Below are positions 38,179 to 40,659 of a DNA stretch of 64,000 bases, piece after piece. This DNA comes from Eledone cirrhosa (Eukaryota): the NCBI GenBank assembly GCA_964016885.1, contig OZ024754.1, forward strand, positions 44,144,001 through 44,208,000, given 5' to 3'. Made by a program: the position numbers and the translations under genes. The number at the start of each line of letters is the position of its first letter. The stretch's first letter is position 1. Below the pieces are notes generated by a model. That model made no database searches. It was given only the letters and a program-made list of their open reading frames with translations, and was not told where the DNA came from.

Positions 38179-40659
38179 CAGCCTTCTATATCAGCCGTTA
38201 TATCCGCCACCGTCTTCAGGTGTCCTAATACCTCAGTCTCACCAGTCCACCTCCATTGTTCCGTCTCCGTCTCTTCTCTCTCCACCCCCTCTCCCTGAAG
38301 AATACACACACACACACATAGATACACACACACACACACACACACGGCAGACACACAGACAGACACACAGAGACAGACACAGACCACACACAGAGACAGA
38401 CACAGACACACACACAGGCATACATACAGACACAGACACACTGACGCCCACACACACACAGATACTCACACACAGACAGGCACAGACACACAAACGCACA
38501 CACACACATAACACACAGATACACACAAATACACACACACACACACACACACACACACACACACACACACACACACACACACACACGCACACACACACAT
38601 ATATATATATATATATATATATATATATATATATATATATATATAAAAGATCAAAAGATGGTTAAAAGAGTTCCATGTATTTTATTAACCATCTTTTGAT
38701 CTTATATATTATTTATACTCCAGTCCTACAAACTGTTGAGTGCTACTTATCCGATATCTGCATTGCTTTATTGTACTACAATAAAACTCACCTCCTACAT
38801 ATATATATATATATATATATATATATATATATATATATATATATATATATATTTATATATATATATATATAATCATATTATAAGATATATATTTTTGAAG
38901 TTCTGGTCAACTTTATTTAGTTACCTACTTAGCTATGTGTGGTTACACACTTGTAAAAATTATCTCCTGTGATTATTCATGTTTATATATATGTTAATCA
39001 ATTTCTAGTTATTATATATATATATATATATATATATATATATATATATATATATATATATATAGTAATAATAATAAAATTGAAGACTAAAATCCAAAGA
39101 GGGCTCGATAAGGAAAATATATATCAAATATATAAGAACCGAAGAGCAAATATTTATTTATATATATATTATATATACGTGTCTGTATTTGTATACATAT
39201 TGATATCTTCTGTCTGTTTGTCTATCGTGAAATGTTCAGAAATAGATTTTCTATATTTTATTTTTATTTTTGAAGTGGGAAATAGTTATTTAATATAGAT
39301 AAGTATCGAATGTATTTTCTGTGGGAAGTAATGACGTCAGGGAGATAATAGTGTAGAGTGGAGTCGCATACATTCGTATATATGCATGGTTTTGGCGAGC
39401 TGATTGGATGTGTCAGTCACATTCGAGCAGCCAGTGTGTGAAGTGCGATGCTACATACTTGTCATATGTTCATGTCAGCCGTTATATCGGAACATGTGGA
39501 CCTACGATCTTGCATCAACTTTTGCCAAAAAATTCCACAGATTTTAGGAATGAATGTCATCCAAATAATTATTTGTACTTTGGGCACAAGGCCAGCAATT
39601 AAACCCAGTGCATTACTGGTACTTTATTTTATCGATACTGTAAGGAAGAAAGGCAAAGTTAACCTCGGTGGGACTCGTACTCAGAACGTAAAAGGCCATA
39701 ACTCTATACTGCAAAGCATTTTGTCTGACATGCACACGCACACGTGCACGCATGTGTGTTAGTGTCAGTTATAATTTGTGCAGTGTCTTGTCATGTTCTC
39801 TCTATTGCACTAATGAAATCTTTATAATTATTTTGAGATTGATATTATATATATTAACTGTATAATGATTTCTACTTTAGTCACAAGGCCAGCAATGTGA
39901 AGGGGAGGGGGGAGGGTCGTCGTACAAATTGCCCTCAGAGCATTACTGGTACTTTATTTTTTCAAGCCTGAAATTATCAAAGTCAAAGCTAACCTCGGCG
40001 GGATTAGAACTCAGAACGCAAAGGGCCGTAACTCTATGCCATTAAGCATGTTGTCCGACGCTCTACCAATTCAGTCAATCCATTATTAACCATATATGGT
40101 TGTTAGATATAAACCATATATGGCAGTTAACCATTTATGGTTGTTATGTAAAAAATGCTGATGTGAGTGTAAACAAATTAAAAATGTCAAAACGACCCAG
40201 AAATATTCTTTAACCAATTAAAGATAACGATGGAATGTAGATTTTTTAATTATTGAGATAATGAAATTTTAGCAAAGATTTTGGTAAGAATTTTCTCACG
40301 TACTTTTAGTAAAATAATTTTCAATTCAACAGCAATTTCGAATATATACAAAACTATATTACACATACATGCGTACATACATACATACACATACACACAG
40401 CCACGCACACACACACACACACTCACACACACACACACACACACACACACACACACACACACACACACATACTCACACACACACATATATATATAAATAT
40501 ATATATATACATGGCGATAATAATCATCATTTTCCTTCATACATAGTCCATTATATCAGATGTTTGTTACGTCTTTATATATATATATATCCAGCGAACC
40601 TTCAACCGCCAAGGTTGTTTTTCTACGGGTATGTCAACATTTATAAAACATATTTTGTA

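Follow-up and report, generated by a model that had tools for sequence, protein, structure and literature searches.

Endonuclease-bearing Penelope-like elements (clades Penelope/Poseidon, Neptune and Hydra), along with truncated or non-autonomous copies of them, carry minimal type I hammerhead ribozymes with a small palindromic helix III, and their hammerhead pairs lie on opposite strands, 100-700 bp apart (PMC4209133, in part; here and below, "in part" means that a portion of the source is cited). Minimal metazoan hammerheads are described as cleaving poorly in vitro, and only as dimers (PMC4209133, in part). Penelope-like insertions show an inverted 5'-truncated copy beside the 5' end, a one-sided tail and (TA)n targets, and the function of their hammerheads was called unclear (PMC8557442, in part). 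In PAc, a Poseidon element of Anolis, the tail is delimited by two reverse transcriptase (RT) start sites, cutting and extension take place on either strand of the target, and mainly uncut RNA is used in vitro (PMC11167929, in part). Non-LTR retrozymes, short non-coding repeats with a type I hammerhead, were proposed as derivatives of Penelope pLTRs and form head-to-tail tandem units with a hammerhead in each (10.64898/2026.07.22.740005, in part). A search made mostly in listings and outside subscription papers found no published comparison of Penelope inversion breakpoints with the site of hammerhead cleavage.

The locus described here is a copy of a short repeat, family C, present twice in the 64-kb window (the whole stretch of DNA analysed), at 38643-38799 and at 61866-62272. 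Family C shares with the Penelope-like elements the minimal type I hammerhead, the small palindromic helix III and the pairing of hammerheads on opposite strands (PMC4209133, in part), as well as the inverted 5'-truncated arm, the one-sided tail and the (TA)n target (PMC8557442, in part). Two RT starts with a tail, an AT-rich target and a hammerhead upstream of the start sites are common to family C and PAc; PAc differs in that ribozyme core mutants insert normally, cleavage being dispensable in vitro, and in that no RNA ends are reported at the cut (PMC11167929, in part). Family C is also short, non-coding and equipped with a type I hammerhead like the non-LTR retrozymes, but both copies in the window are inverted, not tandem (10.64898/2026.07.22.740005, in part). 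Three read joints running from 62181 back to 62126-62159, of which the kind is not given, may be partial tandems. R2 offers a likeness in that ribozyme-defined 5' ends leave a genomic signature. There, an HDV-like ribozyme sits at the 5' boundary and full-length junctions lie there as a rule, whereas in family C the ribozyme has an internal position and the majority of ends run past it. The shortness and abundance of family C and its numerous fold-back copies allow the question of in vivo cleavage to be tested from sequence alone.

Family C and its predicted hammerhead

The architecture of family C comprises a hammerhead in a terminal repeat, an inverted 5'-truncated arm, a one-sided tail and a microsatellite (TA)n target. 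Family C is thus likely to be a non-coding, non-autonomous Penelope-like element. No telomerase-like RT or GIY-YIG reading frame was recognised among the 84 frames of at least 120 residues in the window, three of which were scanned with Pfam. Because no Penelope reading frame is linked to family C, as opposed to endonuclease-bearing Penelope-like elements, membership rests on structure. The tail, 83-91 nt long, compares with 30-40 nt described for Penelope-like elements. The window, rich in A and T, abounds in (TA)n and (CA)n runs and includes a LINE-type reading frame; it probably comes from an animal genome. Family C is abundant in four runs carrying the same species label (4121, 3616, 5474 and 6082 records), and its sequence continues upstream in some reads. 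Pattern scans returned one locus in metagenome contigs, unrelated beyond the 20-mer, and none in viral contigs or prokaryote genomes.

Region 62076-62146 fits minimal Penelope-type hammerheads with a palindromic helix III, and self-cleavage is predicted between 62138 and 62139:

62076-62146, plus strand: predicted minimal type I hammerhead, cut 62138/62139
62076-62083 and 62139-62146, plus strand: stem I, 8 bp
62084-62090, plus strand: core (CUGANGA)
62091-62126, plus strand: stem II, long
62127-62130, plus strand: GAAA
62131-62136, plus strand: palindromic helix III, TGCGCA
62137-62138, plus strand: UH site, UA, cut 62138/62139

The features of the minimal type I hammerhead of Penelope-like elements are present, namely the CUGANGA and GAAA cores, UH, stems I and II and the palindromic helix III. 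A scan with a descriptor composed after the motifs had been seen finds five hammerhead motifs in the window versus none in each of 100 Markov-resampled controls. Rfam gives no hammerhead match at 62076-62146, at the gathering score or at E up to 10, and the fold is no more stable than shuffled sequences (z = -0.69). The variable position 62088 is U in about two thirds of the reads. Pairing in stem II is kept in 8 of the 9 listed read variants, loop variants being left out, and the invariant core bases are hit by none of 40 variant rows (of 107). The hammerhead looks maintained, if weakly so, since all nine stem II variants are transitions and 40 of the 107 rows are covered.

A fold-back junction overlapping the predicted cut

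The copy at 38643-38799 is genuine, and elements of its type are already known. Its parts are as follows:

38596-38642, no strand: (TA)n run preceded by (CA)n, left flank, likely insertion target
38643-38687, minus strand: short tailless inverted arm, corresponding to 62181 down to 62137, its start blurring into (TA)n
38685-38687, no strand: fold-back junction TTA, overlapping the predicted cut, registers -1 to +2
38685-38799, plus strand: sense arm, corresponding to 62159-62271, with a tail of about 91 nt absent from the inverted arm
38800-38871, no strand: (TA)n run, right flank

A base-by-base map against the second family C copy places the switch from antisense to sense arm within 38685-38687 and confirms the turn reported at 38645-38687 in the preliminary description. 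Positions 38643-38687 are the reverse complement of 62181-62137 with one mismatch, at 38646, and 38685-38799 match 62159-62271 with a 2-nt TA insertion and four substitutions. Three nucleotides, TTA, are common to both arms at the junction and allow four registers, in which the junction precedes the predicted cut 62138/62139 by 1 nt, coincides with it or lies 1-2 nt beyond it. The turn had been placed 0-2 nt from the cut with a TA microhomology; the closeness holds, but the microhomology is TTA and the registers run from -1 to +2. The fold-back folds as a DNA hairpin with z = -9.2, and none of 200 shuffles is equally stable. Chance does not account for it.

Under full parsimony, the antisense arm reaches 2 nt past the cut, covers the UA of the cleavage triplet and therefore includes letters absent from a cut RNA. 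The probability that the 2 nt beyond the cut match by chance is about 0.1 (0.09-0.11). Microhomology of at least 3 nt is found in only 7.9% of random end pairs, and this rarity fits a microhomology join using the 2 nt beyond the cut. With uniform ends, the probability that at least one of 11 arms falls inside the four-register window is 0.20-0.26. Alone, this single junction is insufficient evidence for in vivo cleavage.

Breakpoints of sister arms and reads

The second family C copy is made of two arms:

61866-62030, minus strand: short inverted arm containing the complete hammerhead, with A in place of the first core C, ending 124 nt upstream of the cut
62031-62272, plus strand: sense arm with an 83-nt tail, starting 108 nt upstream of the cut

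It turns 108-124 nt upstream of the cut. As indicated by loose ends of reads, 62015-62030 is the reverse complement of the true upstream sequence of family C. This copy sits directly in the (TA)n flank of another fold-back, 61652-61848. Its arms differ twice, at the apparently linked polymorphic sites 62103 and 62106, a hint of two RNA templates that is too weak to use. Across the window, 9 of the 11 arms of hammerhead families A, B and C continue well beyond their cut. The arms counted are those of family A, a second hammerhead family (8890-9479, both arms, 35000-35300 and 21970-22180), of family B (28600, 29650 and 40630) and the four arms of family C; one family A copy lacks the core owing to an internal deletion.

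Reads were taken from the four runs, two from one sample and two RAD libraries; runs X4-X8, in which the word share was small, were left out. Seven opposite-strand joints were used (table 5: 62031/62177, 62031/62240, 62034/62139, 62034/62173, 62049/62136, 62096/62252 and 62111/62202), together with six joints kept from 12 of the 13 rows of table 5c, in which the kind of joint is unstated. The rows dropped were two duplicates, one deletion and three beginning at the right end 62181, with their other ends (62126, 62147 and 62159) away from the cut. Behind 62030, eight indel forms, of a type that the mapping reference favours, look like further fold-backs with both ends far upstream and were excluded from the counts.

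All 13 joints used have one arm that ends upstream of 62136 and thus passes the cut. Eight of the 26 joint ends fall at 62031-62034, 105-108 nt upstream of the cut, where the sense arm of the second copy also starts. This cluster coincides with the edge of the true family sequence in the mapping reference, the window copy itself breaking there, and is possibly an RNA 5' end or a strong stop. One independent joint, 62034/62139, has one end exactly at the cut with no letters between (5 reads, 3 starts, 1 of 4 runs). Outside the upstream cluster, ends exactly at 62139 amount to 1 of 10 in table 5 (P 0.045; within 1 nt, P 0.13) and to 1 of 18 when table 5c is added (P 0.08; within 1 nt, P 0.22). 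One further end, at 62136, would need three letters absent from a cut RNA. Joint 62034/62139 is weak support for a cut template.

The downstream end lies beyond 62189 in 5 of the 13 joints (3 of 7 in table 5 and 2 of 6 in table 5c). In the reads, right ends are found at 62171-62189 and at 62271, and most of them lead into (TA)n; the loose (TA)n ends behind 62181/62189 and behind 62271 define two preferred right ends.

In the RAD libraries, which cover few loci, depth does not step at the cut (X9, 642 to 645 and 2107 to 2127; X10, 537 to 520 and 2650 to 2687), nor is a pile-up listed there; contig depth in X1/X2, being a sum over contigs, was left out. At 62129, 10 nt from the cut, 1142 and 1541 molecule ends pile up, but this was not accepted as evidence of cleavage. 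The pile-up is likely a restriction artefact, being confined to the RAD libraries and accompanied by a variant at 62132 through which AATT arises, presumably the restriction site of the RAD enzyme. The 38685 junction itself was not recovered in the list of read joints, which is sparse and may under-call joints with small loops. Absence from the reads carries little weight because loci are few, contigs drop variants, 309 loose ends stand outside the listing and this known junction is missing. The comparison of breakpoints proposed in the preliminary description thus speaks mostly against a peak at the cut, in the window as in the reads, the one end exactly at 62139 being on the other side. Sister-junction data lean to templates that were not cut, with a favoured stopping point some 105 nt upstream.

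Probable origin from two cDNAs on uncut RNA

We favour, with a probability of about 0.6, a short 5'-truncated copy made from two separately primed cDNAs on uncut RNA, in which the TTA microhomology join overlaps the cut by coincidence. The geometry of the copy, its microhomology, the two right ends and the ends of the sister arms are observed. From these we infer a Penelope-type protein that would act in trans and nick both strands of the (TA)n target. One DNA end would prime at the end of the RNA tail (62272) and the other at an internal AT-rich site (62177-62189), this order of priming and the uncut state of the RNA behind 38643-38799 being likewise presumed. The tail-end cDNA would stop at about 62160 and the internal cDNA at about 62137, after which the two ends would be joined and filled in. 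A stop near 62137-62146 could be helped by pausing in stem I of the ribozyme, without cleavage. As such pausing would also place ends near the cut, only a one-base peak is diagnostic.

A cDNA starting at 62181 can copy itself only to 62181, so that the last 91 nt (62182-62272) need another template. Copy 38643-38799 calls for either a second cDNA or a longer hairpin that was trimmed. The earlier proposal that the cDNA snapped back on itself is therefore incomplete, the antisense arm from 62181 being unable to template the 91-nt tail. Element 2254-2418, similarly built, consists almost purely of an inversion, and its tail arm starts at the beginning of its short arm. Together with the joints beyond 62189, it favours two primers, since self-copying cannot make such forms. 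The two right ends in the reads match the two RT start sites of PAc and also count for two cDNAs. A snap-back step inside the two-cDNA reaction still has room: loops are only 7-22 nt in the window fold-backs C1, C2 and A1, and these small loops and the identical 263-nt arms of A1 (8947-9479) suit self-copying. Folding of the putative cDNA end gave no pre-formed hairpin priming at 62160 (-1 kcal/mol).

Two-primer synthesis is known from L1 twin priming (10.1101/2024.12.14.628481, in part). There, an inverted 5' arm is joined by a short microhomology, as here. The arms of family C overlap, as an inverted duplication, more than in classic L1 inversions.

Against an uncut template stands the position of the junction, within a 4-nt window out of 100-220 positions, which gives a likelihood ratio of 2.5-55 in favour of a cut template, according to the assumptions made. 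With an uncut template, all three shared letters are accounted for, at the price of this positional coincidence.

Less likely alternatives: a ribozyme-cut template or a later deletion

Less probably, the internally primed cDNA reached the 5' end that ribozyme cleavage had left at 62139, then folded back or annealed via 1 nt (untemplated additions may have taken part), and a second cDNA primed at the tail served for its completion; in vivo cleavage would then be recorded in a minority of copies. The cut is one of the four possible registers, one read joint ends exactly at 62139 without intervening letters and another at 62136, and the apparent upkeep of the hammerhead points weakly the same way. 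In R2, 5' junctions track ribozyme cut sites (PMC3774820, in part) and snap-back junctions occur at low frequency among insertions (PMC11331408, in part). A cut template would nonetheless need the chance match of 2 more letters calculated above, and neither a RAD depth step nor a listed pile-up marks the cut at the few loci covered. Even in joint 62034/62139, the other arm passes the ribozyme, so that one shared RNA could not have been cut. For the anole element, the cited portion of PMC11167929 reports no RNA-seq reads beginning or ending at the cut.

With 1-10% of arms assumed to derive from cut RNA, the posterior for a cut template behind this copy ranges from 0.02 to 0.86 across the grid of assumptions and from 0.1 to 0.5 at middle values. 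We consider it rather unlikely that a minority of insertions was copied from cut RNA and that junctions 38685 and 62034/62139 mark the cut to the base. If true, breakpoint maps would document at the genomic level that the minimal hammerheads of metazoan Penelope elements cleave in vivo in the course of transposition; they would also identify synthesis from two primers as the origin of the inverted arm plus tail. Of the preliminary description, which saw a fossil of in vivo cleavage, three elements are retained: the hammerhead, the origin from a retroelement and the nearness of the junction to the cut. The fossil itself is possible but not favoured, because most arms and joints pass the ribozyme, the main cluster of ends lies about 105 nt upstream and TTA reaches 2 nt into the cut-away sequence.

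It is improbable that a longer palindrome like 61866-62272 was inserted first and later lost its centre between two TTA microhomologies, which would make the junction position uninformative about RNA: central deletion of palindromes is a known phenomenon, the 38685 joint has a 3-nt microhomology and long near-perfect palindromes are common in the window, but longer ones survive there (263-nt arms, 100%).

Other repeats in the window

Family A includes the fold-back 8947-9479, with 263-nt arms that are 100% identical and a 57-nt tail. The 5' ends of its three copies lie near an AAGATGG/AAAATGG motif, which we take to resemble a YY1 site; this position suggests full-length RNAs from an internal promoter. 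Family B, the third hammerhead family (28600-28715, 29630-29785 and 40620-40765), has stem I in common with family C and a TATATA-like helix III; none of its copies is truncated at the cut.

A tailed family (2254-2418, 60051-60306 and 39068-39158) occurs as near-pure inversion, fold-back and tail-only forms, and two of its tail arms begin at the start of the short arm, as two-primer synthesis predicts. Fold-back 61652-61848, recorded together with 45000-45140, is near-perfect, has a tail of about 78 nt and contains an apparent 3' half of a hammerhead (GAAAC...GTC, 61726-61748). No hammerhead was found in fold-back 62818-63085, which has 130-nt arms, a short loop and a partial copy at 21719-21795.

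The window also contains an intact LINE-type reading frame of 1153 residues (49817-53278, minus strand; Exo_endo_phos, RVT_1 and zf-RVT), with a related fragment at 6810-7024, and a tandem repeat at 47320-48636 (65-bp unit, 20.3 copies, 97% matches). An abundant SINE-like repeat is dispersed at 667-995, 6020-6352, 19400-19616, 27227-27488, 39564-40082, 55587-56336 and other sites, with one pair arranged as an inverted repeat.
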